Position numbers and translations under genes: made by a program. Shown piece after piece: positions 7,448-35,357 of a DNA stretch of 58,480 nt. Each line of letters begins with the position of its first letter. The stretch's first letter is position 1. The notes beneath the pieces are model-generated. The model ran no database searches and had not been told where the DNA came from. It saw nothing but the letters and a program-made list of their open reading frames with translations. This DNA is from an uncultured Gammaproteobacteria bacterium (GTDB taxonomy: Bacteria > Patescibacteriota > Microgenomatia > CAYGWK01), in assembly GCA_964487495.1 (NCBI GenBank), contig CAZAPL010000033.1, positions 1-58,480 of the forward strand, written 5' to 3'.

Positions 7448-7451
7448 TTGA

Positions 7452-7778: not shown

Positions 7779-7780
7779 TT

Positions 7781-10491: not shown

Positions 10492-10499
10492 TTTCTAAA

Positions 10500-19900: not shown

Positions 19901-19909
19901 AAAAAACCT

Positions 19910-20929: not shown

Positions 20930-20931
20930 TT

Positions 20932-22752
20932 TCAGTATTCCGTTTCTATAATTTCAAAAAGATTTTTAGGAATTTCCTCGATGAATCTTGAAGGGTAATT
21001 TTCAAGGAAAGTACCGAAATATAATCTCTTTCTGGCATAAGAAAGAAATAGTTTTTCTTTTGCCCTAGTTATTGCAACATAACAGAGTCTTCTTTCTTCT
21101 TCAAGTTCATAAAGATCAAAAAGAGAACGCGAATGAGGAAATAATCCTTCTTCCATCCCAACAATAAAAACAACCGAAAATTCCAAACCTTTAGCAGCAT
21201 GAGCAGTCATAAGACTAACTGCATTTTTGGAATCTTTGTTTTTAGGAGAGTTATCAGGCAAGGATTCTTTTTGAATTAAGGAAACATTTTCAAGGAAAGA
21301 AATTAAATCGGGGAATTCGCTGGCGACTGAGCGAAGTTCTTTAATGTTTTCTAATCGATAAAAATCTTCCTCAAATTGCGGATTATAAAGTTCAAGATAA
21401 TTTGTTTCCTTGATGATTCTATCTAAAATCTTTAGCGTATTTATTTTTTTTATTTCTTTCTTTTTTAAGTCTTTAACCAATTCTAAGAATTTTTCAGTCC
21501 TTTTTTTTCCTAATTTTTCAATTCTCTTATAAGAAATTATATCATTTTGGTTAACTAGGAAGCGGAGAAAGGCTAAGACGTCCTTGATTTCTTTTCTTTC
21601 GTAGAATTTTGTTCCGCCAACTAAGATGTAAGGGATTCCTGCATGCAGGAAGGCTTCTTCGATTACTCTTGATTGGGCGTTAGTTCGGTATAAGACAGCA
21701 CATTCTTTTAGGGGATAGGATAATTTTTTTATAGTTTTAACGATAAATTGGGCTTCGTCGTTTTCATTTTTGGCTTCATAAATTTTGATATTTTCGCCTT
21801 CGGGATTTTTGGTCCAAAGTTTTAGGATTGGGTGGGATTGATTATGCTTTATCACCTCAAAAGCAGCATCCAAAATTTTCTGGGTTGATCGGTAATTTTG
21901 TTCAAGATTGATTATTTTTAAATCAGGGAAGTCTTCTTTTAAATACATTAAATTTCGGAAATCTGCTCCTCTGAATCCGTAGATTGATTGACTGGCATCG
22001 CCTACTACACAAAGATTGCGGAATTTTTGGGCTAAAAGTTTAGCCAAAACATATTGAACTCGGTTTGTGTCTTGCCATTCATCAATTAAGATATATTGAA
22101 AACGATTTTGGTATTTCTCTAGTACTTCTTGGTTATTTTGGAAAAGTTTAACTGTTTCCACTAAAAGATCATCAAAGTCTAAAGCATTTTGATTTTTAAG
22201 GAGTTTTTGATAAAGAGGATATACTCTTAATACCTGTTCTTGAAAAGTACCACGGGCAAATTTTGGATATTCTAATGGAGAGATAAGTTCATTTTTGGCC
22301 TGAGAGATGGAATTAAGAAAAGCACCTGGGCTGAATGTTTTTTGAGAAATATTAAGTTTTTCCATTGCTTCTTTGATTGTTTCTAGTTGGTCATTTTCGT
22401 CAAAGATTACAAAATTAGAAGGAATTCCGATTTTATGACCATCGTTTCGTAAAATTTTGGCGCAAAAAGAATGAAAAGTGCCAGCAAAAGGGGGGTTTAA
22501 ATTTTGGGTTTCATAATTCATTTTTAAAATTTTGCTAATTCTTTTTTTCATCTCTTCTGCGGCTTTATTGGTAAAGGTTAAAAGGAGGATTTTTTCCGGA
22601 TTTATTTTCTTTTCAGAGATAAGATAGGCTGCTTTATAGGTTAAAGCACGAGTTTTTCCCGAGCCAGCACCGGCTAAGATAAGCAAAGGGCCTTCTCCAT
22701 AAAGGACTGCTTCTTGTTGAGAGGGATTTAAAAAAGATATAATATCATTCAT
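20932..22752 (-). CDS. pcrA: UvrD/PcrA-type DNA helicase (compact form)
   Basis: MNDIISFLNPSQQEAV...AGAGSGKT, IDEWQDTN, VGDASQSIYGFRGA, NYRST, TAHAAKGLEFSVVF and YVAITRAK motifs. Start placed at the Met giving the canonical N-terminus; the ORF-track start is 22794. Confidence 0.88.
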   Translation of the reverse strand: MNDIISFLNPSQQEAVLYGEGPLLILAGAGSGKTRALTYKAAYLISEKKINPEKILLLTFTNKAAEEMKKRISKILKMNYETQNLNPPFAGTFHSFCAKILRNDGHKIGIPSNFVIFDENDQLETIKEAMEKLNISQKTFSPGAFLNSISQAKNELISPLEYPKFARGTFQEQVLRVYPLYQKLLKNQNALDFDDLLVETVKLFQNNQEVLEKYQNRFQYILIDEWQDTNRVQYVLAKLLAQKFRNLCVVGDASQSIYGFRGADFRNLMYLKEDFPDLKIINLEQNYRSTQKILDAAFEVIKHNQSHPILKLWTKNPEGENIKIYEAKNENDEAQFIVKTIKKLSYPLKECAVLYRTNAQSRVIEEAFLHAGIPYILVGGTKFYERKEIKDVLAFLRFLVNQNDIISYKRIEKLGKKRTEKFLELVKDLKKKEIKKINTLKILDRIIKETNYLELYNPQFEEDFYRLENIKELRSVASEFPDLISFLENVSLIQKESLPDNSPKNKDSKNAVSLMTAHAAKGLEFSVVFIVGMEEGLFPHSRSLFDLYELEEERRLCYVAITRAKEKLFLSYARKRLYFGTFLENYPSRFIEEIPKNLFEIIETEY

Positions 22753-23695
22753 GGGCGTTTCCATTTTACCAAAAAAGAGGCTCTTTTTGATCATAGAAAT
22801 TTTCTTTTTAATTATTTTTTTTCTTTTTTCTTCTGCTTTTAGTTTTTTTTATTTTTATCAAGGAAAAGAGAAAGTAAATCTTCTTCTTTTGGGCGAATCA
22901 GGCCCTGGACGCGAAGGGGCAACATTAACGGATACGATGATATTTGCTTCTGTTTCTAAAAAGGGAATTATTCTTCTTTCTATTCCTCGGGACATTTGGT
23001 ATCAACCCCTTCAGACAAAGATTAATTCTCTAAATTTCTATGGAGGATTACCCTTGGTCAAAAGGGTGGTTGAAGAAATTTTAGGGCAAAAAATAGACAT
23101 GGTTTTTTTAGTCGATTTTGATTCTTTTGTAGAATTTATTGATGTTTTAGGGGGGATAGATATATATGTGGAAAGAGCCTTTGATGATTTTAAGTATCCA
23201 ATCCCCGGCAAAGAAAACGACCTTTGTAATGGAGACAAAAGTTTCTCCTGCCGATACGAACATATTCATTTTGATTCAGGCTGGCAGCATATGGACGGAG
23301 AAACAACTTTAAAGTTTGTTCGTTCACGTCAAGCCGAAGGGGAAGAAGGAACAGATTTTGCGCGTTCTCTCCGCCAGCAGAAGGTGATTGAGGCTGTTAA
23401 ATCGAAAATTTTTTCTTTTAGTTTTTTGCTTGATTATCAAAAGATTTCTTCTATTTTGAAAATTTTTAGAGAGAAAATCAAAAAGGATATTGGCTCAGTA
23501 AATGATTTGTTTTCTTTAGGGAAAATATTGATTTATCCTTCCTCGAGAAAGGCAAGTTCTTTTGTTTTAGAAGGTAAAGATTCCTCTGGAGAGTTTTTAT
23601 ATCATCCAAAATTTCATTATTCAGGGCAGTGGGTTCTTTTACCTGTTGGCGGAAACTGGGAGAAAATTCAAAAATTTGTTTCCTCAATTTTATAG
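22751..23695 (+). CDS. LytR-CpsA-Psr (LCP) family cell-wall glycopolymer transferase
   Basis: N-terminal TM, then NLLLLGESG...TDTMIFASV...LSIPRDIW and VRSRQAEGEEGTDFARSLRQQ, typical of LCP. Confidence 0.85.
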   Translation: MGVSILPKKRLFLIIEIFFLIIFFLFSSAFSFFYFYQGKEKVNLLLLGESGPGREGATLTDTMIFASVSKKGIILLSIPRDIWYQPLQTKINSLNFYGGLPLVKRVVEEILGQKIDMVFLVDFDSFVEFIDVLGGIDIYVERAFDDFKYPIPGKENDLCNGDKSFSCRYEHIHFDSGWQHMDGETTLKFVRSRQAEGEEGTDFARSLRQQKVIEAVKSKIFSFSFLLDYQKISSILKIFREKIKKDIGSVNDLFSLGKILIYPSSRKASSFVLEGKDSSGEFLYHPKFHYSGQWVLLPVGGNWEKIQKFVSSIL

Positions 23696-25716
23696 ATTTT
23701 AGTTTTCCCGCTTTTAAAAATAATTTTCCCAATTTTAGAGAATTTTTCTTCTGAAATTTTATATTTTTCTCTTTCTTTGCTACCAATGAAAATATAAGAG
23801 ATATTGTATTTTTTTAATAGCGCTAAAGTTTGGTTTTTATCATTTGTTTCGTAAATTGTTTGAACTTCACTTGCTCTTTTTCCTGGTTCTTCAAAACCCC
23901 CTCGCCAAAGCCATTCGTGAACTAACCATCCTTGGATTGTTGGCAGTCCTGTTAAAGAAGAAACGCGATTAAATAGAGTGTAGCTGTCACCTGCTGCCTC
24001 AAGAACTTTTGGTTGGCCATTTATGTTTTTTTTAAGCCAAAGAATTGCTTGGTAATCATCAGGAGATGAATTTTTAAGGAAGGAGATTCCGTTTAACCCT
24101 TGGTATTTTCTTAAACCTTCGTAGTAGGAAAGAATCGCAAAACGGGGATAAATTCCTAAAATGAAAAAGAGAAAGAATAAAATAACAAAAGAATAGAAAA
24201 TTTTCAAGGCCTTGTTTTTAATTTTTTTCAATATTTTGTAAATAATGTAGAAGGTACTTAGATAAAACATTACAAATGCTTGATAAGTAAATTTAAACAT
24301 GGTGTTTGCTCTTTGATAAGAATGGATATAAATGTCTTTAAAATAAAAAACTTCAGGGAAGAGGATTAGAAACCAAGAAAAAGCAAAAATGGTGGCGATG
24401 AGGATTTCTGTTTTTTGGAAACCCCCTTTTTCTTTTACCACTTTAATTAAATAAACTAAAAAACTTAAAGTTAAAAATAAAGGGAACCCCCAAAGAACCA
24501 AAAGCATCCAAAAAGGGGAATGAAAATCTGTTAACCTTATTCCTTGAGTAAGATTTTTAAAATTAAGGTGAAAGGGTAAGGCAAAAATTAGCGAACCGGC
24601 AAAAACGGGAAAGACTAAGGAAATGGTTTTGGTAATTGTTTTTAGAGAGAAACGATTTTTTAAGTAATTAAAAACTAAGATAAGAAGGCTAAACAAAAGA
24701 GTATAAATGGCAAAATCCCAGGCGTTAGTCATATAAAATATAGCCAGAAGAAGAGATAAAAAAAGGAAAGATGGCCAAAAAACTTTTTCTGAATTTTCGA
24801 AAATAATTGCCAGAATTAGGCCTAAAAAGAGCAAGACATTGGGGAGATTTAAAAGATGACCATGGAGATCGGCAACAACGAAACTATAGATTGGGAATTC
24901 ATGAATAGTGTTATCGGCGGCCCCAAATTTTTCGACAATAAAACGAGTGGCATCAGGATACCAATAGCCTTTATAGTTGCCATGGTTTATTAAATACCAG
25001 AGGGGGTGCAAGTTGCCGCCGAGGGTGAGCAAAAAGGCAGTCAATAGCCCGATAATTAGCGATAATTTTTGGTTTTCTTTTTTTGAGTTTAGAAAAACAA
25101 GATTTGCGCCTATTGAAAATGAAGCGCTGAAACTTAAGGCAAATAGACTGGCAATTAGCAGATTATAAGTAATTGCTGAATCAATAGTGGAAAGTTTGGT
25201 TAGGACTGCAGAAACTAGGTGGCCAAAGTAGTAATAATTTATACTTTCTCCAGCAAACCACATATCCTGAGGCGGGAAGTATTTACTTCTAAGAATTGAA
25301 TTAACAAAGCCAAAATCCATAAATTTTTCCAATCCTTCAATATTTGGTTGAAATCCGCGGATACAAGACCAGAAATTTAAGGTTAGCAAAAAAATTATTT
25401 CCTCAAGGACAATAGTTTGCCATTGATTTTTAATTTTTTGGGAGAACTCTTTTTTGAAAATTTTGATAATTAAAAGATTGGGAAACAGCAAGACAATGAT
25501 AATAAGTAAAACCGAGGAAAAAGAAAATGGCAAAATTTTTAAACTCCCCAAAAGCCAGGTTAAATAACTAACCATTAAAACCGCAATTATTTTTGAAAAT
25601 CCATATCCTGAGTCAAAAAAATTTTTAAAGAACCACCAGGTTAAAGGAAAAAAGATTATTCCCAATCCAAAAAGTAAAAACCACCAATAAAAAATTAAAA
25701 AAAAGTCATTTGTCAT
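23668..25716 (-). CDS. DUF2298 (YYY-motif) polytopic membrane protein
   Basis: 682 aa with many TM segments and the signature INYYYFGH. The soluble C-terminal domain contains the motif GWLVHEWLWRG. Confidence 0.7.
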   Translation of the reverse strand: MTNDFFLIFYWWFLLFGLGIIFFPLTWWFFKNFFDSGYGFSKIIAVLMVSYLTWLLGSLKILPFSFSSVLLIIIVLLFPNLLIIKIFKKEFSQKIKNQWQTIVLEEIIFLLTLNFWSCIRGFQPNIEGLEKFMDFGFVNSILRSKYFPPQDMWFAGESINYYYFGHLVSAVLTKLSTIDSAITYNLLIASLFALSFSASFSIGANLVFLNSKKENQKLSLIIGLLTAFLLTLGGNLHPLWYLINHGNYKGYWYPDATRFIVEKFGAADNTIHEFPIYSFVVADLHGHLLNLPNVLLFLGLILAIIFENSEKVFWPSFLFLSLLLAIFYMTNAWDFAIYTLLFSLLILVFNYLKNRFSLKTITKTISLVFPVFAGSLIFALPFHLNFKNLTQGIRLTDFHSPFWMLLVLWGFPLFLTLSFLVYLIKVVKEKGGFQKTEILIATIFAFSWFLILFPEVFYFKDIYIHSYQRANTMFKFTYQAFVMFYLSTFYIIYKILKKIKNKALKIFYSFVILFFLFFILGIYPRFAILSYYEGLRKYQGLNGISFLKNSSPDDYQAILWLKKNINGQPKVLEAAGDSYTLFNRVSSLTGLPTIQGWLVHEWLWRGGFEEPGKRASEVQTIYETNDKNQTLALLKKYNISYIFIGSKEREKYKISEEKFSKIGKIIFKSGKTKIYKIEETNF

Positions 25717-27379
25717 AAGAAAGAATGTTTTTTAAGGTTTGGCTTGAAAAATGGCGAGTATTTTTAAAAATTATGACTTTTGGATGGTCATAGACTTGAA
25801 AGGTTTCTTCGCTTTTATCATCGTTTATGGTTAGACCAAAAAGATTAGGGTAAGAAGAAAATTCGGCAATTTGACTGTAGCCTAATTGGCCTGAAAACAA
25901 AAGTTTGTAATAACGACTAGTTATAGGATATTTTTCCGGAAGATTTATTAAGGTTCCGTAAAGGCGGCGGCTGTTTACGATAATATAGTCTGCCTGAGAG
26001 AGTTTTTCTGAATAATAGTTAATTTTTTGAACTCCGTCTGAGTCATAAATGGTTAATTGTTCAATTTTGTATTGATTTGGGTGAAAAGGAGGAATTTCTA
26101 TTGGTAAACTGTCATCCCAATGTTCAGTTAGTAATTTTTCTCCTTTAGGGATATTTTGATAAATCCAGCGTGAGGCAGTTATTCTTGTTGATTCTTTAGC
26201 ATAAATTGAGAAAAAGGAAATTGCCCAAAAAAAAGTAGTAGTTGCCCCCAGGAAAATTAGGATTTTTCCTGCTTTGGGGAAATGTTTTCCAATTTCGTCT
26301 ATGAACCAGGAAGAAGAAATTATTAAAAATGGCAAAACAGGGAGCATGTAACGGATAAATTTAGTGTGCCATGAGCCAACATAAAGAAAATAGGAAATGG
26401 GGAAGGAAAGAAAAACGAGAAGTTTTTTGTTGCCATTTTTAATGGTCTTTATAAGGATAAGAATCGTCCCTAGAATTCCTAAAAAGGCAATTGGCCCCAT
26501 TTGCCAAAAAAAATTTTTAATTTGGAAAAGATAAGGAAGAGTTTTCTCGAATTGGAGAGTATAAACTACTCTTAGTTTGCCTGTGGCAACACCTGATTCA
26601 TAAATCATTGATTCCCAAAATTTAGGGAAGTCTAAAAAAACATAAGGAGAAAAAAAGGAAAAGACCACAAAAGCTAAAAAAAGAGAAAATAAAAATTTTA
26701 AATGGTTTTTTAAGTATTTAAAGTGATAAAGAAAATGGGCAGCTGAAGGAATTATCAAAAAAGCAAGAGATGATATTTTGGTTGCTGTTGCTAATCCCAG
26801 AATGGTCCCTATTTTAAAATAATTTTTGATTAGCGGTTTCTCGATTATTTCAAAAGTAAAATTTAAAACTAGGAAAAGCCAAAAAACAAGCATACTTTCG
26901 GTTACGCCAAAATGGGCGGTTTGGATAAGAGAAGGGCAAAAGGCAACTAAAAATGCTGATAAAAGGCCAATTTTCTCATTCCAAATTCTCTTGGATAAAA
27001 GAAATACCAGCAAAATGGTAAAGGTTGAAAGAAGAGCAGAGACACTTCGGCCAATAAGATTAATATGGGCCCAATTGGAAATCCAATTTTTATCTCTAGT
27101 TATTAGGAACAAAAAATCGCCAATTGCTCGATAAAGATAAATTGGAAAACTGCCATAGGCAAAAAATTTTGGGTTTAACTGGTCAAAAAAATGGATTCGA
27201 GAAACGGCAAGAGCAATATTTCTCTCATCGGGATGAAAGAAATGACCTTCGTCCCAGTTTAAATTATAAAAGCGCAAGAAACCACCAGAAACAGTAATAA
27301 TTAGTAATAAGTAGAGTGATTTTGATTTAAGGGGTTTAAAAATTTTCAATCTCATTGGCAATTTTTTCTCCTTCTTCAA
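25706..27379 (-). CDS. GT-C fold glycosyltransferase (GT39-like)
   Basis: 557 aa, polytopic, with FHPDERN and PIYLY loop motifs and a soluble C-terminal domain. Its start overlaps the upstream flavoprotein gene. Confidence 0.65.
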   Translation of the reverse strand: MKKEKKLPMRLKIFKPLKSKSLYLLLIITVSGGFLRFYNLNWDEGHFFHPDERNIALAVSRIHFFDQLNPKFFAYGSFPIYLYRAIGDFLFLITRDKNWISNWAHINLIGRSVSALLSTFTILLVFLLSKRIWNEKIGLLSAFLVAFCPSLIQTAHFGVTESMLVFWLFLVLNFTFEIIEKPLIKNYFKIGTILGLATATKISSLAFLIIPSAAHFLYHFKYLKNHLKFLFSLFLAFVVFSFFSPYVFLDFPKFWESMIYESGVATGKLRVVYTLQFEKTLPYLFQIKNFFWQMGPIAFLGILGTILILIKTIKNGNKKLLVFLSFPISYFLYVGSWHTKFIRYMLPVLPFLIISSSWFIDEIGKHFPKAGKILIFLGATTTFFWAISFFSIYAKESTRITASRWIYQNIPKGEKLLTEHWDDSLPIEIPPFHPNQYKIEQLTIYDSDGVQKINYYSEKLSQADYIIVNSRRLYGTLINLPEKYPITSRYYKLLFSGQLGYSQIAEFSSYPNLFGLTINDDKSEETFQVYDHPKVIIFKNTRHFSSQTLKNILSYDK

Positions 27380-28613
27380 TAGCGTAGTTTATTCCCCTAT
27401 CCCAGGGGTAAATTTGCTGCATATTTGCAAGATAGACATTTGGAATTGGAGTTTTATGGGGGAGGATAATTTTTGAATACTCCAAGGGTATTAAAGGTTG
27501 AGCATTGGGAGCAGTAAATAACAAATAGTAGATAGTAAATTTGGAGAAATCAAATCGGGGGTTGATTTTTTGAAGATAAGGAAGGAATTTTTTAAAAATT
27601 TCTTCTTTTCCCATTTTAAAGTAAGGGTGATTTTGGGGATAATAGCCGCCAAGGTAGACAATATAGTTTCCCCCATAGTGTTTTTTATCAATAAAATTTG
27701 TATGTTCCACAAGAGCAACAAAAGGAAAGTTTTTCTCATTGATGCTTAGCCAGTAGGTATTGTCGGTTAGAAATTGTTTTTTTAAAACTAAGATCAAGTT
27801 TAAAGCGCCAAACATTTCAAAACTTTTAAGAATTCTTGCCCATTTTTCTATTTTATCATGGTCTTTACTTAAAAAATTTTTGCTTTTTTGGATAATTTTA
27901 TAAAATTCTGAATTAGGAACAGTAACAATAATTTTGTTAAAATGATTCAAATCATTTAAACTAGAGATTTGCCTGTTTAATTTGATTTCTCCATCATTTT
28001 CTTTTATTTTTTTGATTAACGCATTAATAAGGGTTTGAAATCCACCCTCAAGATATCCTAGTTTCTGGCTTCTTTTTTTAATTCTTGCCCAAAACCAAGA
28101 CATAGAAATTTTTGGGGCACTATTGCCAAATTTTGCTTTAAGTAAAGGCTCCCATAAAATCTTATAGGGTTTTTCTCCATAGTATTTTTTTAACCATTCC
28201 TGAGCAGAGATATTTTCAAATTTTTTCCAGTTTTTGGTTGTTTTAAGATAGAAAGTGGCAAATCCGGCTTGGAGTTTTTCTTTGAAAGAAAGAAAAGGGA
28301 AGTTTAAAAGAGATAAAGGAGAATCAAATTGGGAAATCTTTTTTTGGTAAAAAATCGAAGTTTTTGGTTTTAGGTAAAAAAGTTTCCTTGAAAGATTAAG
28401 CTCGGAAATTAGTTTTTTTGCTTCTTCGTCTGAAGGAAAAAGATGATGGTAAAAATATTCTAAATACCAGCGCCAATTTTTTTCTCGGAAACCGGCGGCT
28501 ATTCCTCCTGGGGATTTTCCTTTTTCAAAAATAAAAACTTTATGTTTTTTTTGGGATAGTTTATAAGCCGCAGTTAAACCAGTAAAACCGGCGCCAATAA
28601 TAGCAATTTCCAT
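27336..28613 (-). CDS. FAD/NAD(P)-binding oxidoreductase (amine-oxidase / phytoene-desaturase-like fold)
   Basis: MEIAIIGAGFTGLTAAYKL...IFEKGKSPGG is a dinucleotide-binding start. 425 aa, substrate unknown. Confidence 0.7.
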   Translation of the reverse strand: MEIAIIGAGFTGLTAAYKLSQKKHKVFIFEKGKSPGGIAAGFREKNWRWYLEYFYHHLFPSDEEAKKLISELNLSRKLFYLKPKTSIFYQKKISQFDSPLSLLNFPFLSFKEKLQAGFATFYLKTTKNWKKFENISAQEWLKKYYGEKPYKILWEPLLKAKFGNSAPKISMSWFWARIKKRSQKLGYLEGGFQTLINALIKKIKENDGEIKLNRQISSLNDLNHFNKIIVTVPNSEFYKIIQKSKNFLSKDHDKIEKWARILKSFEMFGALNLILVLKKQFLTDNTYWLSINEKNFPFVALVEHTNFIDKKHYGGNYIVYLGGYYPQNHPYFKMGKEEIFKKFLPYLQKINPRFDFSKFTIYYLLFTAPNAQPLIPLEYSKIILPHKTPIPNVYLANMQQIYPWDRGINYAIEEGEKIANEIENF

Positions 28614-28643
28614 AAATTATATTTTAGCATTTGGGGAAAGTGA

Positions 28644-29273
28644 TTAGAAAATAAGAATTATTGCCAGCCCAAGGAGTAAAGTGGTAATTCCTCCAAAGAG
28701 AATTCCTAAAGTGGGAGTTAAAAAGCCGGCAGAGGGAAGTTGGGGTGAGGTTGGAGTTGGGGTGGGAGTGGTTGGTCGTGGAGTGGGAGTTGGAGTCGAA
28801 GTTGGTCTGGGGGTTGGAGTTGGAGTTGGAGTGGGAGTTGAAGTTGGTCTTGGAGTTGGAGTTGGGGTTGGTCTTGGAGTTGGAGTTGGGGTAGATTCTA
28901 CTGGACCGAGAGGAGGGGGGGGGCAAATACAGTCTTCATCAAGGGGGCAATCTTCGTTATAACAAATTAATACTTGGCTACAGACTTGGCCAGGCGGACA
29001 GGGTGTTCCGCATTTTAACCCTTCTTGACAATCGGTGTCTTTTGAGCAACCTTCTCGACAACCTTTTTTTTCTATGGATATTTCGAATAATTTGGTGCAT
29101 TGAGGAGCTGGTGTTTCTTCGTAAACTGCAGGGGCTGGTTGGGGGACAGTTGGGGCTATTGGTTGTTTTTTTGTTTGGTAAAGTTTTAAAGCGGTAAAAA
29201 TGGCAACCGATGTTAAAATCAACGTAGCAAAAGAAATCAAAACTAAATGCCAACTTTCTTTTATTTTTTCCAT
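28644..29273 (-). CDS. exported Cys-rich protein with (TP)n-RP repeat linker and C-terminal LPSAG sorting-like signal
   Basis: N-terminal TM/signal anchor, 11 Cys within about 60 aa and a TPTPTPRP repeat. It ends in LPSAGFLTPT followed by a hydrophobic tail. Confidence 0.7.
   Translation of the reverse strand: MEKIKESWHLVLISFATLILTSVAIFTALKLYQTKKQPIAPTVPQPAPAVYEETPAPQCTKLFEISIEKKGCREGCSKDTDCQEGLKCGTPCPPGQVCSQVLICYNEDCPLDEDCICPPPPLGPVESTPTPTPRPTPTPTPRPTSTPTPTPTPTPRPTSTPTPTPRPTTPTPTPTSPQLPSAGFLTPTLGILFGGITTLLLGLAIILIF
28743..28895 (-). repeat. imperfect short tandem repeat encoding the Thr-Pro/Arg-Pro linker
   Basis: The plus strand reads reiterated GGAGTTGGAGTT / GGGGTTGG / GGTCTTGG units. 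It generates spurious ORFs in other frames and on the other strand. Confidence 0.85.
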
Positions 29274-29276
29274 TTT

Positions 29277-30374
29277 TTATTTCCAGCCTGAGTTTTGGTT
29301 ATAAACCATTGCTTCAATTTTGTATTTTCCTGATTTTCCAAATGTATAGGTGATATAAAACTCTCCATTTTGGTTTTTGATTGTTGTTTCTTGCCAAGCG
29401 CCAACCTGACCATCGACTGTTATCCTAAAGCGAGCCTTGGTGATCTTTTGATTGTTTGTTGCTGATCCTTTAGTGGCAAGATAATAATTTTGGTCGGGTT
29501 TTAGAAATGGCTCTGCAACTTCTTTCCAATCAGTTTCGTAAATTTTGACATATTCACATTTGACTGTTATAGGGGGGGTTGGGGTTGGAGAAAGAGAAGG
29601 AATTGTTCCGCTAACAAATCTTACTTTTAGATTATCTCGACAATCATCTTTGTCTTCATCTTTGTCTTTGCCAACAAAGGTTTTAACGATAAGAGTTCCT
29701 CCGACTTTACCGCCATTAAATTTGTTGAATAAATCATTTAAGTTAATGACGTATATTCCTCCCTGGGTTTTTTGAACGGTAAAATCATGTCTGCAGTTTT
29801 TATCACACCCACAAAAACCGTCATAGGCCAAAAAACCATTCCCATAATTGCAATTATCAGTATTTACATAATTTGGTGAATATTCAGCCCAGCGATAGAT
29901 CCCTTGAGGAAGGGGGCCTTGGTTGTCCATAAAAGAGGCAAATTTGAAAAGATAAATACCATTTTCTTGGGGGAATTGATCAATTTTTAAGTATTTATTA
30001 GTTTCCGCTGGGTTGCTTCCTGAGCCTTCACTCCAGCCCTGAAGGGTTAAAACTTTAGTTGCCATTTCACCTCCAGTTATACCTCCACAAGTAACTGTTG
30101 CCTTTTCTCTTATTTCTTGTCTTTGTTGGGTTAAATAAACAGCCAAGGGGATTGAGGCAAGGAGAAAAAATACACCAACTGAAGCCAAAATTATTTGCTT
30201 TTTAGACAGTCTTTTTGGCGGTTTTTTTAAAGATATTTCTTCCGGGTTTTTTAATTGGGCAGGAGGAGGAATACCCGGCGGAGGTTCTGGAGGTGGTGCA
30301 CCTGGAGCAGGAACAATAACTTCTTCCTTTTTATCATCTTGCGGTTGACTTGGATTGTTAGGCAAATCGTTCAT
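29277..30374 (-). CDS. type II membrane protein with Pro-rich cytoplasmic head and Cys-containing beta-rich ectodomains
   Basis: PAPGAPPPEPPPGIPPP N-terminus and a single TM. The ectodomain has CNYGNGFLAYDGFCGCDKNC, a short PTPTPP linker and an Ig-like C-terminal domain. No family recognised. Confidence 0.6.
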   Translation of the reverse strand: MNDLPNNPSQPQDDKKEEVIVPAPGAPPPEPPPGIPPPAQLKNPEEISLKKPPKRLSKKQIILASVGVFFLLASIPLAVYLTQQRQEIREKATVTCGGITGGEMATKVLTLQGWSEGSGSNPAETNKYLKIDQFPQENGIYLFKFASFMDNQGPLPQGIYRWAEYSPNYVNTDNCNYGNGFLAYDGFCGCDKNCRHDFTVQKTQGGIYVINLNDLFNKFNGGKVGGTLIVKTFVGKDKDEDKDDCRDNLKVRFVSGTIPSLSPTPTPPITVKCEYVKIYETDWKEVAEPFLKPDQNYYLATKGSATNNQKITKARFRITVDGQVGAWQETTIKNQNGEFYITYTFGKSGKYKIEAMVYNQNSGWK

Positions 30375-31762
30375 GATTTAGTTTTCCCATAAATTAAACT
30401 TAAAAAAAATAGACCTCCAAAGAGAAGGACTATTCCCATTGTAAAGAGGAGAAAGGTTGGTGTCAAGTAGCCAGAAGTAGGAATGCCGCTTTCTGTTGAG
30501 GGTCGAGAAGTTCGTGGAGAGGGAGTAGGAGAAGAGGTAGCGACAGGAGTGGGAGTTAAGGTTAGAGTAGGTGTTGGAGTTAGAGTGGCTGAGGGGCTGG
30601 CGGTAAAAGCCGGGAGGGTATTTTCGCCGGCAGCCAAAACAGTAAAGGTTCTGGAAATTGTTTTTCCTCCATAACTAACTTTAATAGTATGGGTTCCTGG
30701 TGCGAGGTCCTCTGGAGGAATAAAATTCCATTCTCCATTTTTATTTGTTTTGACGGTTCCTGTATAAATTGGTGATTCAATGGTAATCTGGAGAGTTTGG
30801 TTTGCAGGACCACTTCCTATAATTTCTGGTCTTGAGGTGGCAACTTTTTCGTTTTGCTCCGGGCTTATTATGGTTATTTGATTTGGACTGGCTCCTCCTG
30901 TGGAAATAGGAATTTCTTCAAAAGGGAATTTAGAGGAAGGAGTCGCCTGATTTTCGGATTGACTGGGAGTGGAGGTAGGAAGTAAGGGCGTTTTTTCATT
31001 TGATTGTAAAGAGGAAGTTTGTCGAAAATCGTAGTTTCTCCCTAAAGTAATTTCTGGAATAGGGTTGTCATTTTTAGTGGTAGTTATTATGGTTGATGCC
31101 CCCAAAGAGGCTCCTTGAACAAAAATCTCTAAAATTTGGGCTTCTTTATCGTAGGTTGCATAGTTTGAAAGATTAGAAGATAAAGCGGTGTTTAAGGGGA
31201 TAACGAAACTTCCTGAAGAGCGAACCAGCGTTGATTGAGGAGTTGTGTTGGTAAGGCTTAAATAAACAATTACTCCTTCTGCTGGGGTACCGTCTTGTTT
31301 GAGAATTATACCCGAGACAACATCGCTTGGGGGAGGGGTTCCGGGGATGACTGGGGCGGTAGTTACCTCATAAGGTTTCCCGGAATTATCAAAAATTTTT
31401 CCTCCTGAACTAATTTTGAAAAAATAAATAGTTTTTGGCTTTAGATTTTTTAAAGTCACATGATGAGTTTGGAAGTTACCGGTACTGCCAGATACTTGAT
31501 CTCGATCGTCGGCAAAGGTTTGTCCCAAAGAAGGCGTTTCCCCAAATTGGACAAATCCGCTTGTTTCTTTATCAGTAATCCAAGAAACGGTAAAGGAAGA
31601 AGAAGAAATATTGGTAATTTTTACTTGGTTAGGAGTAATTTCTGGAGAGGCTCTTAAAAGAAATACTTGGTTGTTTTTAATAAGGAACACCCCACTAAAA
31701 ATACCAATGACTAAAAAGAAAATTGCCAAAATTGTTGGAATTCTTTTTTCTTTATTAAACAT
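30371..31762 (-). CDS. exported multidomain surface protein (FN3-like, CarboxypepD_reg-like, Ig-like) with PT linker and IPTSG sorting-like signal
   Basis: Signal anchor and FTVSWITDKETSGFVQFGE...HHVTLKNLKPKTIYFFKI (FN3 / purple-acid-phosphatase N-domain-like), then VSGIILKQDGTPAEGVIVYL. It ends in IPTSGYLTPT plus TM plus GKTKS. Confidence 0.7.
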   Translation of the reverse strand: MFNKEKRIPTILAIFFLVIGIFSGVFLIKNNQVFLLRASPEITPNQVKITNISSSSFTVSWITDKETSGFVQFGETPSLGQTFADDRDQVSGSTGNFQTHHVTLKNLKPKTIYFFKISSGGKIFDNSGKPYEVTTAPVIPGTPPPSDVVSGIILKQDGTPAEGVIVYLSLTNTTPQSTLVRSSGSFVIPLNTALSSNLSNYATYDKEAQILEIFVQGASLGASTIITTTKNDNPIPEITLGRNYDFRQTSSLQSNEKTPLLPTSTPSQSENQATPSSKFPFEEIPISTGGASPNQITIISPEQNEKVATSRPEIIGSGPANQTLQITIESPIYTGTVKTNKNGEWNFIPPEDLAPGTHTIKVSYGGKTISRTFTVLAAGENTLPAFTASPSATLTPTPTLTLTPTPVATSSPTPSPRTSRPSTESGIPTSGYLTPTFLLFTMGIVLLFGGLFFLSLIYGKTKS

Positions 31763-31764
31763 TT

Positions 31765-32100
31765 TTACATCCCCTCAGTTTCAGTTATAGTAGGTGTCTC
31801 GGATTCTGCTTCTGCAATAGTAGGTGTTGGTGTCGGCATTAAGGTTGGAGTTTTAGTCGGCGTGGAAGTTGGCGTTGGCAAAATGAATTCTTCTTCTTTT
31901 ATCTGAAGACGTTTTGAGAGATTTTCTAAAGTTTCCATATCAACTTGAGGATTAAGAGGCGTAAGCTGCTCTTGAACATTTTTTGGAATTTCTACCTTAT
32001 TAAAGGCACGATAGACGTCAAAGCCAATCCAGGTTAAGATAGTAATGGCAGTTAAGATGGCAATATAAAATAAGTTTTTTGAAAATTTTGATTCTTTCAT
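31765..32100 (-). CDS. small membrane-anchored protein with PT-rich tail
   Basis: 111 aa with an N-terminal TM and a C-terminal PTPTSTPTKTPTLMPTPTPT stretch. Confidence 0.55.
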   Translation of the reverse strand: MKESKFSKNLFYIAILTAITILTWIGFDVYRAFNKVEIPKNVQEQLTPLNPQVDMETLENLSKRLQIKEEEFILPTPTSTPTKTPTLMPTPTPTIAEAESETPTITETEGM

Positions 32101-32103
32101 AGT

Positions 32104-32748
32104 TTATTCTAAGAAATAAAATTTTCCTGAAATATTTAGGTTTATAGCTTCTGTTTCTCCACCCTCTGTACTTTCTTTTTTGGAAAAAGACGAGGAATCA
32201 ATAGTAATAATTCTTCTCAGTTGGTTTAAGGAATCAAGGAATTTTTCTAAATCTTCAAAATTTCCGTTTAAAGAAAGGGAAAAAGATAAATTTTGAAGAG
32301 AGGAGGTTTTCTTTGTCTCTTTTTTTGTAGGATCTTTGCCAAGAAGAACAGAAGGCTCAAAGGAAAGGGAATTGATAGTAAGGTTATTCTTTTGGGCTAA
32401 AGTTTCAAACTGGAGAGTTACTTGAGAAAGAGAAGGAGTTGGGGGGATGACTTCGTCAATTAAGGGTAAGTACGGTTCGGCAAGAGTATAATTTGATTGG
32501 GCAGAGGAAAGGGTGTTGATCTTTTTTTGTAATTGATTATTGATTTCTTTTTGGGTTTGGATTTCTCTATATAAAGAAACTATAGTAATGAGTGTGGGTC
32601 TTATGGCAAAAACAGCAAAAAAAGAGACAGATAAAAGAGTTAAGATCAAGCCGGTGTAGACAACCGTTTCTTTTTTTTGATAAATTTTTGGAATTTCTTT
32701 AAAATAGCGACTATAGCGATGATATTCAGTTAAGGTTCTGGGTATCAT
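32104..32748 (-). CDS. PilO-like bitopic membrane protein
   Basis: Short cytoplasmic head, one TM, a coiled coil (QKEINNQLQKKINTL) and a ferredoxin-like C-terminal domain (LSLNGNFEDLEKFLDSLNQLRRIITID). It follows the PilN-like gene with a 4-nt overlap. Confidence 0.55.
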   Translation of the reverse strand: MIPRTLTEYHRYSRYFKEIPKIYQKKETVVYTGLILTLLSVSFFAVFAIRPTLITIVSLYREIQTQKEINNQLQKKINTLSSAQSNYTLAEPYLPLIDEVIPPTPSLSQVTLQFETLAQKNNLTINSLSFEPSVLLGKDPTKKETKKTSSLQNLSFSLSLNGNFEDLEKFLDSLNQLRRIITIDSSSFSKKESTEGGETEAINLNISGKFYFLE

Positions 32749-33305
32749 TTTTGTTTTATCCCTCCAGGTAAATATTTTGCGGTTAAACTAAATTTAATTC
32801 CTATTTCCTCAGGCTTTTTAAAAATACTTGAGAGATTAACATCGGTAAATTCTGGCGAATTAGAAAAACCAGCGACAAAACCTCCAAGCCCTTCTTCTGA
32901 AAGTGCTAATCCGTTTATTTTTATTTCCTTCGTTTCCTTTTCGTAATTTAAAGTGGAGAAAATAATATCCCCAGGAGTAAAAGAAGAAATAGTAGAAATT
33001 ATTGAGGTAATTTTGACTTGATCTTTTTCAAGTTCCTTTATCTTCGAAATTTTTTCCTGAAAAGATTTAAATTCTTTTTCAAAACCTGAATAAGAATTTA
33101 TAATTGCTTGTTTTTGTTTAATTTGCTCATAAAGATTAGTAAGATCTCGATCTAATTTAAAACGAGAGATAAAAGCGATAATAACCACTAATTCGGTAAA
33201 AATAACGATCCATCTACCAACTGAAAGAAGCCAAAGTAAAAATTTACCTAAAGGTTTCTTTTCAAATTCTTCCTTTGGTATGAGATTAATTTCTTTGTTG
33301 GGCAT
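32745..33305 (-). CDS. PilN-like bitopic membrane protein
   Basis: N-terminal EINLIP (the INLLP-type PilM-binding motif), one TM, a coiled coil and a C-terminal alpha/beta domain of PilN size. Confidence 0.6.
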   Translation of the reverse strand: MPNKEINLIPKEEFEKKPLGKFLLWLLSVGRWIVIFTELVVIIAFISRFKLDRDLTNLYEQIKQKQAIINSYSGFEKEFKSFQEKISKIKELEKDQVKITSIISTISSFTPGDIIFSTLNYEKETKEIKINGLALSEEGLGGFVAGFSNSPEFTDVNLSSIFKKPEEIGIKFSLTAKYLPGGIKQK

Positions 33306-33361
33306 GGTTTAGTTTAAGTATATTTTATTAGGAGAGAGTTTGTCAAAGGGTATTTTGAGAA

Positions 33362-33649
33362 TTAACTTTCTTTTTCTTTTTTGGTTTTTTTCCTTTTGAT
33401 TTCTTTATTTCCTTTTTCTTCAATTAATTTTGCCAATCTTGACTTTAGCCTTGCGGCTTTATTTTTATGAATTATTTTCTTTTTAGCTGCTTGATCAAGA
33501 AGGCTTGAAGCTTTTCTGAATGCTTCTTGGCTTTTTTTCTTTCTCGCCAAAGAAACCGCCCTTTTAAGGTTTTTTTTGACCAAAATATTTATTTTGGCTC
33601 TTCGGCGATCTTTTCTTAAGGCTTTTTTAGCGCTTTTAGTTTGTGGCAT
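33362..33649 (-). CDS. rpsT: 30S ribosomal protein S20
   Basis: MPQTKSAKKALRKDRRRAKINILVK... is the S20 pattern. The ORF-track N-terminal extension to 33847 overlaps murJ and is not credible. Confidence 0.9.
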   Translation of the reverse strand: MPQTKSAKKALRKDRRRAKINILVKKNLKRAVSLARKKKSQEAFRKASSLLDQAAKKKIIHKNKAARLKSRLAKLIEEKGNKEIKRKKTKKEKES

Positions 33650-33689: not shown

Positions 33690-35357
33690 ATGGTAAAAAA
33701 TATTTTAAATAAAGGGAAAATAATTTTCTTAAGAAAACAAAAAAGTATTTTGTCGGCCGCTCTTTTTATAATGGCTACCGTTTTTCTCTCTCGGATTTTA
33801 GGGCTTTTAAGAGATAGGCTTTTGGCAGGTAAATTTTTTGGTGGCAACGAATGGCAACTGGATGTTTATTTTGCCGCTTTTAGATTTCCAGATATGATTT
33901 TTCAACTTTTAGTTATTGGGGCGCTTTCGGCGGCTTTTATTCCTGTTTTTAGTGAATATCTGGAAAAAGATAAAAAAGAGGCTTCTTTGGTGGCTTCTTC
34001 AATTATTAACATTGTCTTAATCCTTTTTTTAATTTTGGGATCCCTAATTTTTATTTTTGCCCCCTATTTTTGCAAAATTATTGCTCCTTCTTTTTCTCCG
34101 GAAAAAATTGTTTTAATGTCTTATTTAACAAGAATTATGCTTTTTGCTCAATTTTTTTTCTGCATTTCAAATTTTTTTACTGGAATTATTCAGTCTAATC
34201 AGCGTTTTTTAGTTCCGGCTTTGGCGCCGGTTGTTTATAATTTTGGAATTATTTTGGGGATAATTTTTTTAACTCCCTTTTTGGGAATTTATGGGCCAAC
34301 ATTTGGGGTAGTTTTGGGTGCCTTTTTACATCTTTTAGTTCAATTTCCTTTGGTTTTAAAACTTGAATTTTCTTATTCTCCCTGGACATGGGCCTTTTTT
34401 CATCCTGGAGTAAGAGAAATTGTTAAATTAATGATTCCCCGGAGTCTGGCTTTAGCGGTTTCGCAGATAGAAGCTACCTTGGCCGTTTTTTTAGCCACCT
34501 CTCTTTCCTCCGGGTCTTTGACGATTTTTTATTTTGCCCAGCATTTGATGAATCTGCCTGTTGGCCTTTTTGGAGCCACCATTGGTCAAGCAGCTTTGCC
34601 TTCTCTTTCTCAAAATATTTCAAGAAAAGATTGGCAAGAATTTAAGAAAACTTTTTTATCATCCCTTTTCCAGGTTCTTTATTTAGTTTTTCCCGCTTCG
34701 GCTATTCTTTTGGTTTTGCGTATTCCTATTGTAAGACTTGTTTTTGGAACTAAAAATTTTCCTTGGCAGGCTACTCTTTTGACAGGAAAAACTTTGGCTT
34801 TTTTTACTTTTGCCATCCTTAGCCAAAGTGCGATTCAAGTTTTAGTTAGGGGGTTTTATGCTCTTCGCGATACCAAAATTCCTCTTTTTATTGGATTGAT
34901 AGGGGTGGCAATTAACATTTTTTTAAGTGTTACTTTTGTTTTTTATTTTAAATTTGGAGTTTTGGGATTGGCAGCTGCAGTTTCCTTGGCGAGTTTGGTT
35001 CATGCTTTTTTACTTTTTTGGATTTTAGAAAGGAAAATTGGGGGATTTAAAAAGAAAGAGGTTTTTATCCCCTTTTTAAAAATAGGTATTGCTACTTTCG
35101 TAACGGCTTGTTTTCTTTGGTTTCCAATGAGGGTTTTAGATAAGTTTATTCTTGATACTACAAGAACTGCCAATTTAATTATTTTAACCATTATTGCCTC
35201 TCTTTTAGGGTTAGGAGTATATTTATTTCTTTCTTTTCTTTTAAAAATTGAGGAATTTAAAATTTTTGTTGATCTTCTAAAGAAAATTGGTCAATGGCGA
35301 AAGATCCTTTCTGAGTCAGAGGAGATGATTGATTCCGTGAGATCTCCGCAAGGATAA
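33690..35357 (+). CDS. murJ: lipid II flippase MurJ
   Basis: 555 aa, about 14 TM segments, with SRILGLLRDRLLAGKFFG and the overall MviN/MurJ pattern. Confidence 0.88.
   Translation: MVKNILNKGKIIFLRKQKSILSAALFIMATVFLSRILGLLRDRLLAGKFFGGNEWQLDVYFAAFRFPDMIFQLLVIGALSAAFIPVFSEYLEKDKKEASLVASSIINIVLILFLILGSLIFIFAPYFCKIIAPSFSPEKIVLMSYLTRIMLFAQFFFCISNFFTGIIQSNQRFLVPALAPVVYNFGIILGIIFLTPFLGIYGPTFGVVLGAFLHLLVQFPLVLKLEFSYSPWTWAFFHPGVREIVKLMIPRSLALAVSQIEATLAVFLATSLSSGSLTIFYFAQHLMNLPVGLFGATIGQAALPSLSQNISRKDWQEFKKTFLSSLFQVLYLVFPASAILLVLRIPIVRLVFGTKNFPWQATLLTGKTLAFFTFAILSQSAIQVLVRGFYALRDTKIPLFIGLIGVAINIFLSVTFVFYFKFGVLGLAAAVSLASLVHAFLLFWILERKIGGFKKKEVFIPFLKIGIATFVTACFLWFPMRVLDKFILDTTRTANLIILTIIASLLGLGVYLFLSFLLKIEEFKIFVDLLKKIGQWRKILSESEEMIDSVRSPQG

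Follow-up and report, generated by a model that had tools for sequence, protein, structure and literature searches.

In the type IVa pilus (T4aP) systems of P. aeruginosa, M. xanthus and T. thermophilus, the proteins PilM-PilN-PilO-PilP(-PilQ) form an alignment complex, and classically the pilMNOPQ operon is separate from pilB, pilC and pilD. Here we describe a run of nine genes that begins with homologues of pilN and pilO and continues into genes for surface proteins and glycan enzymes in a bacterium of the Microgenomates, a group of the candidate phyla radiation (CPR). Microgenomates are uncultured and ultra-small, and their attachment to hosts is attributed to surface structures. The DNA analysed, called the window below, is the complete contig CAZAPL010000033.1 of assembly GCA_964487495.1 (58,480 nt), in which every open reading frame (ORF) was accounted for. 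The nine ORFs are numbered along the minus strand, with g1 at the 5' end:

g1: 32745-33305, minus strand, PilN-like bitopic protein, 186 aa
g2: 32104-32748, minus strand, PilO-like bitopic protein, 214 aa
g3: 31765-32100, minus strand, small bitopic protein, 111 aa
g4: 30371-31762, minus strand, FN3 protein with three beta-sandwich domains, 463 aa
g5: 29277-30374, minus strand, lineage-variable type-II membrane protein, 365 aa
g6: 28644-29273, minus strand, Cys-rich small surface protein, 209 aa
g7: 27336-28613, minus strand, soluble FAD flavoprotein of the amine-oxidase/phytoene-desaturase fold
g8: 25706-27379, minus strand, GT-C glycosyltransferase of the PMT_2 type, TTG start
g9: 23668-25716, minus strand, DUF2298/Chlor_Arch_YYY polytopic membrane protein

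ORF calling returned exactly the coordinates and junctions that a model had given for this co-directional run after reading the letters alone (below, the original prediction). Overlaps of 4 nt join g1 to g2 and g4 to g5, and one of 11 nt joins g8 to g9, whereas g2/g3, g3/g4 and g5/g6 are separated by 3, 2 and 3 nt and g6/g7 by 30 nt. The 44-nt overlap of g7 with g8 depends on the TTG start of the latter, which is probably over-extended because an ATG sits 8 codons inside the ORF. The run consists of three consecutive units, which are probably co-transcribed in this genome: g1-g4 (unit A), g5 and g6 (unit B) and g7-g9 (unit C). Our favoured reading, which is tentative and to which we give a probability of roughly 45%, is that unit A encodes an alignment complex of the PilNOP(Q) type, adapted to a monoderm and provided with a partner anchored in the wall, and that sortase cargo and linker-glycosylating enzymes follow it.

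Comparison with described systems

The T4aP alignment complex is the closest in its first genes. In sequence and fold, g1 is homologous to PilN and g2 to PilO, and the pair has the same bitopic topology, coiled coil and C-terminal alpha/beta domain, as well as a PilN N-terminus of the INLLP type. Furthermore, the operon lies apart from ATPase and platform genes, and the PilO gene is followed by genes for a small membrane-tethered protein and then a larger beta-rich one, in the positions of PilP and PilQ. However, no pilM precedes pilN here, and g3 and g4 have no detectable homology to PilP and PilQ. Instead, g4 is a three-domain FN3 stalk with a Pro/Thr (PT) linker and a putative sortase-type C-terminal signal, the host is a monoderm, and the g1-g4 cluster runs on into surface-protein and glycosylation genes. 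The GspL-GspM-GspC proteins of the type II secretion system (T2SS) also resemble the pair, as described below, but g1 is without the cytoplasmic GspL domain and there are no GspC, D, E or F genes or pseudopilins nearby.

Gram-positive sortase-anchored proteins and pili resemble the downstream part. g4, g6 and many of their positional equivalents end in [LVI]Px[AST]G and a hydrophobic helix, sometimes with a basic tail, Ig-like/FN3 domains occur in both, and there is a sortase in the genome. The neighbouring MurJ and FemAB cross-bridge genes match as well, their products flipping and making the acceptor substrate, respectively. The differences are that the variant motifs LPxAG and [VI]PxSG fall outside the curated models, the cluster has no sortase, and no pilin motif or E-box was identified here. 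To our knowledge, Gram-positive sortase systems are not associated with PilN or PilO.

Two further comparisons concern unit C. Some GT-C enzymes O-glycosylate proteins with sugars carried on polyprenyl phosphate: actinobacterial PMT (GT39) acts on Thr/Pro-rich regions, and P. aeruginosa TfpW adds D-arabinofuranose to pilins. Like these systems, the locus has a GT-C enzyme (g8, of the PMT_2 type with a DE loop) beside exported proteins with Pro/Thr linkers, and a UbiA protein of the decaprenyl-phosphate phosphoribosyltransferase type is encoded in the window, or within the cluster itself in two related loci. However, g8 scores under the PMT cut-off, and g7 has an amine-oxidase fold and not that of DprE1 (VAO). 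The other comparison is with the families TIGR03662 (Chlor_Arch_YYY/DUF2298) and TIGR03663 (Agl23-like) of Chloroflexi and Archaea, two uncharacterised families that are often found together. g9 belongs to TIGR03662 over its full length and the adjoining g8 matches TIGR03663 weakly (16.6 bits against a cut-off of 126), but the host is a CPR bacterium and a PRK07233 flavoprotein is an extra partner.

The original prediction held that the coupling of a PilN/PilO pair to surface proteins and glycan enzymes is not a described system. In our literature searches we found no account of a PilN-PilO-g3-FN3 cluster, and none of LPxAG/[VI]PxSG signals in Patescibacteria. Taken singly, the families are known; the architecture is not.

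The PilN-like and PilO-like proteins

Profile and fold both show that g1 is a true PilN homologue and g2 a true PilO homologue, as had been suspected from their sequences. g1 scores 35.5 bits with the Pfam PilN model (PF05137; cut-off 22.8), and a profile of 23 g1 homologues matches M. xanthus PilN (3jc8) with E=1.7e-6. The protein has an N-terminal EINLIP motif (EINLIPKE), a transmembrane (TM) helix at residues 26-44, a long helix and a C-terminal beta-beta-alpha-beta-beta domain. In its AF2 model (pLDDT 81.9), the TM helix runs on as one long helix (residues 18-109 in all), which leads into the C-terminal domain. The best Foldseek matches of this model were the periplasmic domains of PulL, EpsL and XcpY, and T. 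thermophilus PilN and PilO were also found; TM-scores to GspL/PilN periplasmic domains, normalised to the target, were 0.55-0.80. The fold is nearer to the single-repeat type of GspL and T. thermophilus PilN than to the double alpha-beta-beta type of PilO.

For g2, the Pfam PilO model (PF04350) gives 31.8 bits (cut-off 22), and a profile of 25 homologues matches M. xanthus PilO with E=2.9e-15 and P. aeruginosa PilO with E-values of 3.5e-7 and 4.9e-5. Weak matches to T2SSM_b and GspM were seen as well (Pfam/NCBIfam). Its TM helix (residues 29-47) ends in a conserved FAIRPT motif. Unfortunately, single-sequence searches of the PDB with g1, g2, g8, g9 and the 743-aa protein described below gave nothing useful, and only the profiles were successful.

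An INLLPxE-type N-terminus is kept in most of the 23 aligned g1 homologues, with the consensus INLLPQE; some clades have IEFIP or ISLLS instead. In known systems, PilM binds to PilN at this conserved motif (PMC5805733). Particular to the g1 family is a further, invariant signature, GR[WY]IVxxTEL...SRFKLDRDL, in which SRFKLDRDL is juxtamembrane and the Glu (residue 38 of g1) lies in the TM helix. In a full HMMER scan, this subfamily comprised 392 clusters (50% identity) at E<=1e-30, out of 8170 PilN-like matches. A profile search for more distant PilN relatives or paralogues on the same long contigs returned members of the same subfamily only, among the best 120 matches listed.

Two of the conserved features, one in each protein, lie in or at the membrane, namely the invariant Glu of the PilN-like TM helix (in TEL; g1 residue 38, at about 33192) and the FAIRPT motif of the PilO-like protein (g2 residues 47-52, 32593-32610). 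To judge by their sequences, an intramembrane contact between this Glu and the Arg of FAIRPT is possible.

Conservation of the cluster in Microgenomates

Relatives were found by homologue look-up with the exact protein and by a scan of one genome per GTDB species, after which ORFs were called and clustered. The sample comprises 80 species-level Microgenomates loci, the titles of which name Shapiro-, Pace-, Beckwith- and Woesebacteria; in all, 89 loci (about 1.4 Mb) were fetched, with flanks of 10 kb on each side. PilN, PilO, g3 and g4 follow one another in this order practically throughout (they are present in 83, 80, 67 and 69 loci, respectively), and the median gaps between them are 0, -1 and 51 nt. 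Such a recurrence of the first four genes in the same order in about 80 species-level genomes is far beyond chance, and the original prediction had named conserved gene order as a check on itself.

Downstream genes were counted in 51 non-redundant loci that extend 8 kb or more in the downstream direction. In this set PilO is present in 51/51, g4 in 47/51 and g3 in 43/51. Past g4, a GT-C gene is found in 26/51, an amine-oxidase-type flavoprotein (AmOx) in 19/51, LCP (LytR-CpsA-Psr) in 11/51 and DUF2298 in 8/51; some glycan gene follows in 34/51 loci and non-glycan genes in 17/51. Pacebacteria-type loci have Bac_transf, Wzy_C, GT1 and carbamoyltransferase genes in place of the g7-g9 module. The full nine-gene order is kept in closer relatives (L004 and L005, with PilN identities of 64% and 55%); at 45% identity (L006), a second PMT-type gene replaces DUF2298. 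Hence, the run is composite, with a class-wide core (g1-g4), a lineage-variable pair (g5 and g6) and a replaceable module (g7-g9). The proposal that surface proteins and glycan enzymes follow the pair is borne out repeatedly in the relatives. The further idea that the nine genes form one dedicated system fares well for PilN-PilO-g3-g4, and poorly for g5 and g6, which vary, and for g7-g9, which occur in a minority of loci.

On the other side of the pair, MurJ and rpsT are nearly always directly upstream, MurJ being adjacent in 76 loci and rpsT beside PilN in 68. In 33 loci murJ is both adjacent to PilN and co-directional with it, with a median gap of 53 nt. The two murJ-rpsT arrangements differ by one inversion of the pair. 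MurJ is not beside the PilN/PilO pair in L009, L085 and L024. The housekeeping genes hrcA-grpE-dnaK-dnaJ, lepA, rpsT and murJ are as syntenic on this side as the cluster is on the other.

In two loci (L009, 5431-10904, and L085, 9929-14557), a trio of PilN-like, PilO-like and g3-like genes is preceded by a sigma-70 factor gene. Downstream of the trio are arrays of 5-7 small proteins, each with two TM helices and a GGD..K loop (PF18895, T4SS_pilin, VirB2-like). A 2025 survey of type IV secretion systems and VirB2 arrays in Patescibacteria does not mention PilN or PilO (PMC12102498).

Many of the GTDB-representative metagenome-assembled genomes that carry the cluster (L010-L089) are titled 'uncultured Gammaproteobacteria', 'Pseudomonadales', 'Nevskiaceae', 'Methylococcaceae' or 'Bathyarchaeia archaeon'. 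On genomes with a Microgenomates cluster, these titles are evidently placeholders or wrong taxonomic labels.

g3 and g4

g3 begins with a basic N-terminus and a TM helix in which a Trp is conserved; the segment PLxPxhD, conserved as well, comes next, and the PT-rich tail is disordered. It matched no family in Pfam or NCBIfam. Its family stands directly after PilO in 67 loci, which is the place of PilP in pilMNOPQ operons. The possibility that g3 is a pilin was rejected, as a class III signal, a Gly at -1 and a Glu5 are all lacking.

g4 consists of an N-terminal TM helix, beta-sandwich domains at about residues 45-134, 148-250 and 297-375, a PT linker (382-436) and a predicted C-terminal sorting signal. 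The AF2 model (pLDDT 80.5) shows the N-terminal TM helix, the three beta-sandwich domains, two disordered linkers and a C-terminal helix. Its Pfam matches are Pur_ac_phosph_N, fn3 and Big_13, and the Foldseek matches are generic tandem FN3/Ig arrays that include bacterial adhesins and the S-layer stalk SlaB. A purple acid phosphatase was rejected, as the match covers only the non-catalytic N-terminal FN3-like domain of that enzyme. The g4 family was found in 69 loci, and of its 391 homologues the best 120 listed share 47-69% identity. This conservation equals or exceeds that of the PilN homologues, most of which are about 33-65% identical.

Close relatives have a second g4-related FN3/Big_13 protein across murJ (L004, 6803-8029; L005, 5448-6650), together with GH39, Cellulase and GHL15 glycoside hydrolases. 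Both this protein and the hydrolase genes are absent from the window.

Putative sorting signals, g5 and g6, and the sortase

The C-termini of g4 and g6 are, as read from their sequences, putative sortase-type sorting signals. The features concerned are:

g4 C-terminal sorting signal (residues 417-463): 30374-30514, minus strand, RTSRPSTESG-IPTSG-YLTPT, hydrophobic helix, KTKS
g6 C-terminal sorting signal (residues 178-209): 28647-28742, minus strand, QLPSAG, then a hydrophobic helix
sortase: 56325-57017, plus strand, TLITC active-site motif, PF04203 88 bits

The 20-residue end motif of g4, R..(M)PST..G[VI]PxSG.LTPT, has near-invariant columns and is kept together with the TM helix in 49 loci, often with basic residues after it. 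All 7 members of the g6 family, found in 7 loci, end in ELP[EKSV]AG and a TM helix. LPxAG/LPxTG tails also occur in 25 other single-member or small families. In total, 34 proteins of the fetched loci (g4 aside) carry such a tail, most of them at variable positions downstream of g4. The ending ELP[x][AT]G (LPEAG, LPSAG, LPETG, LPQTG and others) with a hydrophobic helix after it is thus shared by g6 and many proteins unrelated to it.

A sortase is reported from nearly all Microgenomates (PMC6744442), and we flag LPxAG and [VI]PxSG as the likely sorting signals of this enzyme. The sortase of the window, 23 kb from the run, is the only candidate enzyme in it for both types of signal. It scores 56.7 with TIGR01076 (cut-off 39.35), and no class-specific model was passed. 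The signals and the sortase had been missed in the original prediction, and they change the picture of how the downstream proteins may be displayed. That prediction had described exported proteins with signal anchors and PT linkers. The linkers are indeed present in g3, g4 and g6, and the candidate terminal signals IPTSG and LPSAG suggest that g4 and g6 are more than signal-anchored.

g5 is different, although it had been counted among the PT-linker surface proteins. Its Pro-rich stretch is N-terminal and probably cytoplasmic, because it precedes the TM helix (residues 61-79), and there is no sortase-type signal. The protein has 7 Cys and a C-terminal Ig-like domain, and its only Pfam matches are weak ones to Filamin and Y_Y_Y. 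It clusters as a family of its own, in which only the C-terminal part is common to relatives. g6 has 11 Cys and a long PT linker encoded by six copies of an imperfect 24-nt repeat.

In three other assemblies of the same organism (L001, L002 and L003), the contigs break inside or just after g4, g5 and g6; the g6 repeat is at 28750-28889. Assembly breaks at PT linkers probably hide downstream genes in many metagenomes.

The gene that adjoins the sortase gene (54091-56322, plus strand) encodes a 743-aa protein with a cytoplasmic N-terminal domain of about 360 aa, a TM helix (365-383) and an extracellular part with a borderline Baseplate_J match. As the N-terminal 360 aa could have been a hidden PilM or GspL, they were compared with Pfam and NCBIfam, where no match was found even at E<=10. 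By eye, the domain resembles an actin-like (FtsA/PilM/GspL) fold, and if it is one, it could be the cytoplasmic partner of the PilN-like protein.

The flavoprotein and the membrane glycosyltransferases

The last three genes had been read as a flavoprotein/GT39/DUF2298 module. The amine-oxidase fold, the GT-C type and DUF2298/YYY hold, and the GT39 assignment is not supported, as the PMT model stays under its cut-off and only PMT_2 passes. g7 scores 87.8 bits with Amino_oxidase (Pfam) and 416.6 bits with PRK07233 (NCBIfam NF005560; cut-off 252), and carries an N-terminal GxGxxG FAD-binding motif, IIGAGFTG, at residues 5-12. Its nearest solved relatives are an uncharacterised Pyrococcus protein, PF1083, and protoporphyrinogen oxidase; the PRK07233 family is itself uncharacterised. 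g9 scores 343.8 bits with PF10060 (DUF2298) and 533.6 with TIGR03662 (cut-off 300); it is a protein of about 700 aa and has at least 13 TM helices and a YYYFG motif (SINYYYFGH). It is presumed to be GT-C-like.

g8 gives 42.8 bits with PMT_2 (PF13231; cut-off 26.1) and 20.7 with PMT (PF02366), which is under the 22.7 cut-off of the latter. Hence, it is best described as a GT-C of the broad PMT_2/ArnT-like group and not as a demonstrated GT39. Apart from the weak Agl23/TIGR03663 match mentioned above, there is a weak one to LA_3751. A DE motif lies in the first extracytoplasmic loop (WDEGHFFHPDER), and the stretch NLNWDEGHFFHPDERN, with the acidic DE motif, comes after the first hydrophobic segment.

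In L040 and L043, a flavoprotein of the g7 family is followed directly by UbiA and GT-C genes, and the UbiA of L040 is of the decaprenyl-phosphate phosphoribosyltransferase type. The UbiA of the window (5457-6500) scores above the NCBIfam cut-off for the same enzyme (DPPR synthase). From this adjacency and the presence of UbiA in the window, we infer that g7 acts on a polyprenyl-phosphate sugar donor for g8 and g9.

The window UbiA belongs to a second glycan cluster (5457-11984, minus strand), which further comprises GT4 (WecA/MraY-like), two GT-C (one of them PMT_2) and GT2. Judging by these genes, a CPR bacterium may possess a pathway to a polyprenyl-phosphate pentose donor like the DPA pathway of mycobacteria.

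Pilus genes in the neighbourhood

The survey of all ORFs in the window found no pilM, pilB, pilC, pilT or pilD and no prepilin-type N-terminus, and the only GSGKT Walker-A motif belongs to FtsK. This agrees with the original prediction, which had found no PilM, assembly ATPase, platform, prepilin peptidase or pilin. It had also taken canonical pil genes just outside as grounds for abandoning the idea of a separate system; pilM, pilB and pilC are all missing from the 10-kb flanks of the pair in the 80 related loci. The absence of nearby pilus genes is no argument by itself for independence from type IV pili (T4P), because pilMNOPQ and pilB/C/D are separate in classical T4aP. T4P components, PilM included, are widespread in CPR bacteria (PMC6744442).

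One relative (L064) has, at about 8000 on the minus strand and between rpsT and murJ, a 122-aa ORF with the canonical type IV prepilin N-terminus GFTLIELMVV (LLGFTLIELMVVVAIMGIV). It lies directly beside the murJ-PilN-PilO cluster and is the only such ORF in the 89 fetched loci.

A possible alignment complex of a monoderm cell

We favour the reading of unit A as an alignment complex for several reasons: the homology of g1 and g2 is specific, the PilM-docking motif is kept, a separate pilMNOPQ location is normal, g3 and g4 stand in the positions of PilP and PilQ, and T4P are widespread in CPR bacteria. Unit A is an ancient Microgenomates operon, and its products would then correspond, in a monoderm cell, to the PilNOP(Q) subcomplex of the machines for type IV pili and type II secretion. 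PilN and PilO would pair in the membrane by way of their TM, coiled-coil and ferredoxin-like regions, and the cytoplasmic INLLP-type N-terminus of PilN would dock a PilM-like protein of the ATPase fold encoded elsewhere. g3 would take the position of PilP and g4 that of PilQ. Fixed to the wall or the membrane, g4 would couple the platform to the cell wall and so replace the outer-membrane secretin, which is absent in these bacteria.

The fast-evolving exported proteins of unit B would be cargo, and g6 is probably displayed on the wall by the sortase 23 kb away. In unit C, the flavoprotein and the two GT-C-type membrane glycosyltransferases would use lipid-linked sugars outside the membrane. 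Pro/Thr linkers are typical substrates of O-glycosylation. By analogy with actinobacterial PMT and the arabinosylation of pilins by TfpW, unit C would most plausibly O-glycosylate the linkers of g3, g4 and g6. Alternatively, it may build a wall glycopolymer that the adjacent LCP enzyme then attaches. If the core is a T4P alignment complex, it would show how a monoderm that has no secretin can couple a pilus to its wall, by means of a wall-anchored FN3 stalk that has no precedent in model systems.

A number of findings weigh against this reading. PilM, PilB, PilC, PilT and PilD are encoded neither in the window nor, in any of the 80 loci, in the 10 kb on either side of the pair, yet many CPR genomes co-localise their T4P genes, with pilM-N-O adjacent in Saccharibacteria (PMC6744442, PMC12206443). 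No similarity could be detected between g3 and PilP, or between g4 and secretins or any T4P part, and the fold matches of g4 are generic FN3 arrays. In L009 and L085 the trio precedes VirB2-like pilin arrays and not g4; therefore, it can pair with non-T4P cargo. Furthermore, unit A is constantly accompanied by sortase cargo and wall/glycan genes. The [VI]PxSG and LPxAG tails match no curated sorting-signal model in NCBIfam or Pfam, the g6 signal is without a basic tail (LPSAG and helix only), and the sortase is unlinked to the cluster in every locus. Finally, the glycosylation targets of g8 and g9 are ones that we purely infer, and the conserved neighbourhood may in part reflect the general synteny of small CPR genomes.

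Alternative explanations

The last point leads to the alternative that survives best. Functional coupling might end at g4, g5-g9 merely lying in a syntenic envelope neighbourhood and their tight spacing resulting from genome compaction. The variation of downstream content by lineage (AmOx in 19/51 and DUF2298 in 8/51 loci, Bac_transf/Wzy_C elsewhere, non-glycan genes in 17/51) is what one would then expect, as are the equally syntenic housekeeping genes on the other side and the second strong promoter-like site in the 3' end of g4, upstream of g5. However, despite the turnover of families, g4 is in two thirds of the loci followed once more by genes for surface proteins or glycans, PT linkers occur in g3, g4 and g6, and stop and start codons overlap throughout the run. 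All in all, we think that an absence of coupling is rather unlikely.

A second alternative retains the coupling and dispenses with the pilus. PilN, PilO and g3 may have been repurposed as a stand-alone scaffold for the export, sortase anchoring and glycosylation of g4 and of variable cargo, with a paralogous locus that does likewise for VirB2-like pilin arrays. The trio is never beside T4P genes in the 80 loci and is always followed by Sec-exported surface proteins with putative sorting signals, often with glycan enzymes further on (34/51 loci), and the wall-assembly genes MurJ, LCP and FemAB are on the flanks. The arrays of L009 and L085 point the same way, as does the PilN clade itself, a distinct group (392 clusters of the 8170 PilN-like matches) with its own invariant TM/juxtamembrane signature. 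On the other hand, the N-terminal motif of the PilM-binding type is kept, a separate location of pilNO is normal in classical T4aP, and nothing indicates that T4P are missing from these genomes or that they contain a second PilNO pair. Moreover, conservation of only the first four genes implies a loose coupling to glycosylation, and the trio encodes neither an energy source nor an enzyme. We regard such a machine as rather unlikely. Its explicit form, a novel type of apparatus for surface assembly, is in our view unlikely: a PilM-less platform made of the trio would take Sec-exported proteins to the sortase and the GT-C enzymes and build a wall-anchored glycoprotein structure on a g4 base, a paralogue acting for the VirB2-like arrays. 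If the core is pilus-independent after all, it would represent a new use of the PilN/PilO scaffold, in the display of sortase-sorted and probably glycosylated proteins. Either way, the cluster defines a conserved and testable set of envelope proteins, with about 400 PilN clusters (50% identity) and at least 80 species-level genomes.

Another role for g4 might be that of Sulfolobus SlaB or of the haloarchaeal S-layer glycoprotein, as anchor or stalk in a glycoprotein coat that resembles an S-layer; PilN, PilO and g3 would then insert g4 into the membrane or organise it. The haloarchaeal S-layer glycoprotein has a Thr-rich O-glycosylated stalk and a processed C-terminal anchor. With its beta-sandwich domains, Thr/Pro linker, conserved motif and C-terminal TM helix, g4 is built in a similar manner; it is highly conserved across the class, glycosylation genes are adjacent, there is a weak match to the S-layer glycoprotein of the HVO_2072 type (E=0.0022), and SlaB is among the fold matches. 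These matches are weak, however, and driven by low complexity or generic folds. g4 is small (463 aa), no lattice-forming partner was identified, no archaeosortase or exosortase was seen, and no known system links PilN/PilO to S-layers, which makes a coat of this kind improbable.

A divisome or elongasome accessory, in which the two bitopic coiled-coil proteins would be FtsL/DivIC-like and act with MurJ in wall synthesis, is very improbable: MurJ is adjacent in 76 loci and co-directional in 33 (median 53 nt), and g2 residues 29-90 match DivIC (E=0.0055) and FtsL (E=0.011), but these matches are far under the cut-offs and cover the TM and coiled-coil part only, so that an FtsL/DivIC identity was rejected, the matches to PilN and PilO are specific in profile as well as in fold, both MurJ arrangements follow from a single inversion of murJ-rpsT, and MurJ is not beside the pair in L009, L085 and L024.

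Flanking genes and other features of the window

Upstream and downstream of the run, the following features were found:

promoter-like site: 33317-33346, minus strand, TTGACA-18-TATACT, 11/12 match, in the rpsT-g1 spacer
rpsT (ribosomal protein S20): 33362-33649, minus strand, translation; PF01649 annotated on the identical gene in L001
murJ (lipid II flippase): 33690-35357, plus strand, divergent from the g1-g9 run; TIGR01695 319 bits
LCP (LytR-CpsA-Psr) glycopolymer-to-peptidoglycan transferase: 22751-23695, plus strand, PF03816 104 bits; TIGR00350

rpsT is directly upstream of g1 on the same strand, and the spacer of 56 nt contains the promoter-like site, which ends 11 nt before the g1 ATG. 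This site is a consensus match only, and the total of such sites in the region is no higher than in shuffled sequence. Likewise, there is no convincing intrinsic terminator on the minus strand within the run, where the count of candidate sites is not above that of shuffled sequence. Rfam and tRNA scans gave nothing relevant in the region.

The LCP gene is convergent with g9 and overlaps it by 28 nt, and an LCP gene after DUF2298 is also found in the closest relatives. Downstream of g9, past the LCP gene and beyond a UvrD helicase, lie two FemAB genes. Thus, the 3' end of the run (19088-23695) carries a tandem pair of the FemAB family, which functions in peptidoglycan cross-bridge formation, and LCP, and the 5' end carries murJ. 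With these flanks, the region from 19 to 35 kb is given over to wall assembly and decoration, apart from the UvrD helicase and rpsT.

Near the start of the contig, a truncated fragment of an integrase-core (rve_3) transposase is located at 655-1143 on the plus strand, upstream of groES-groEL.

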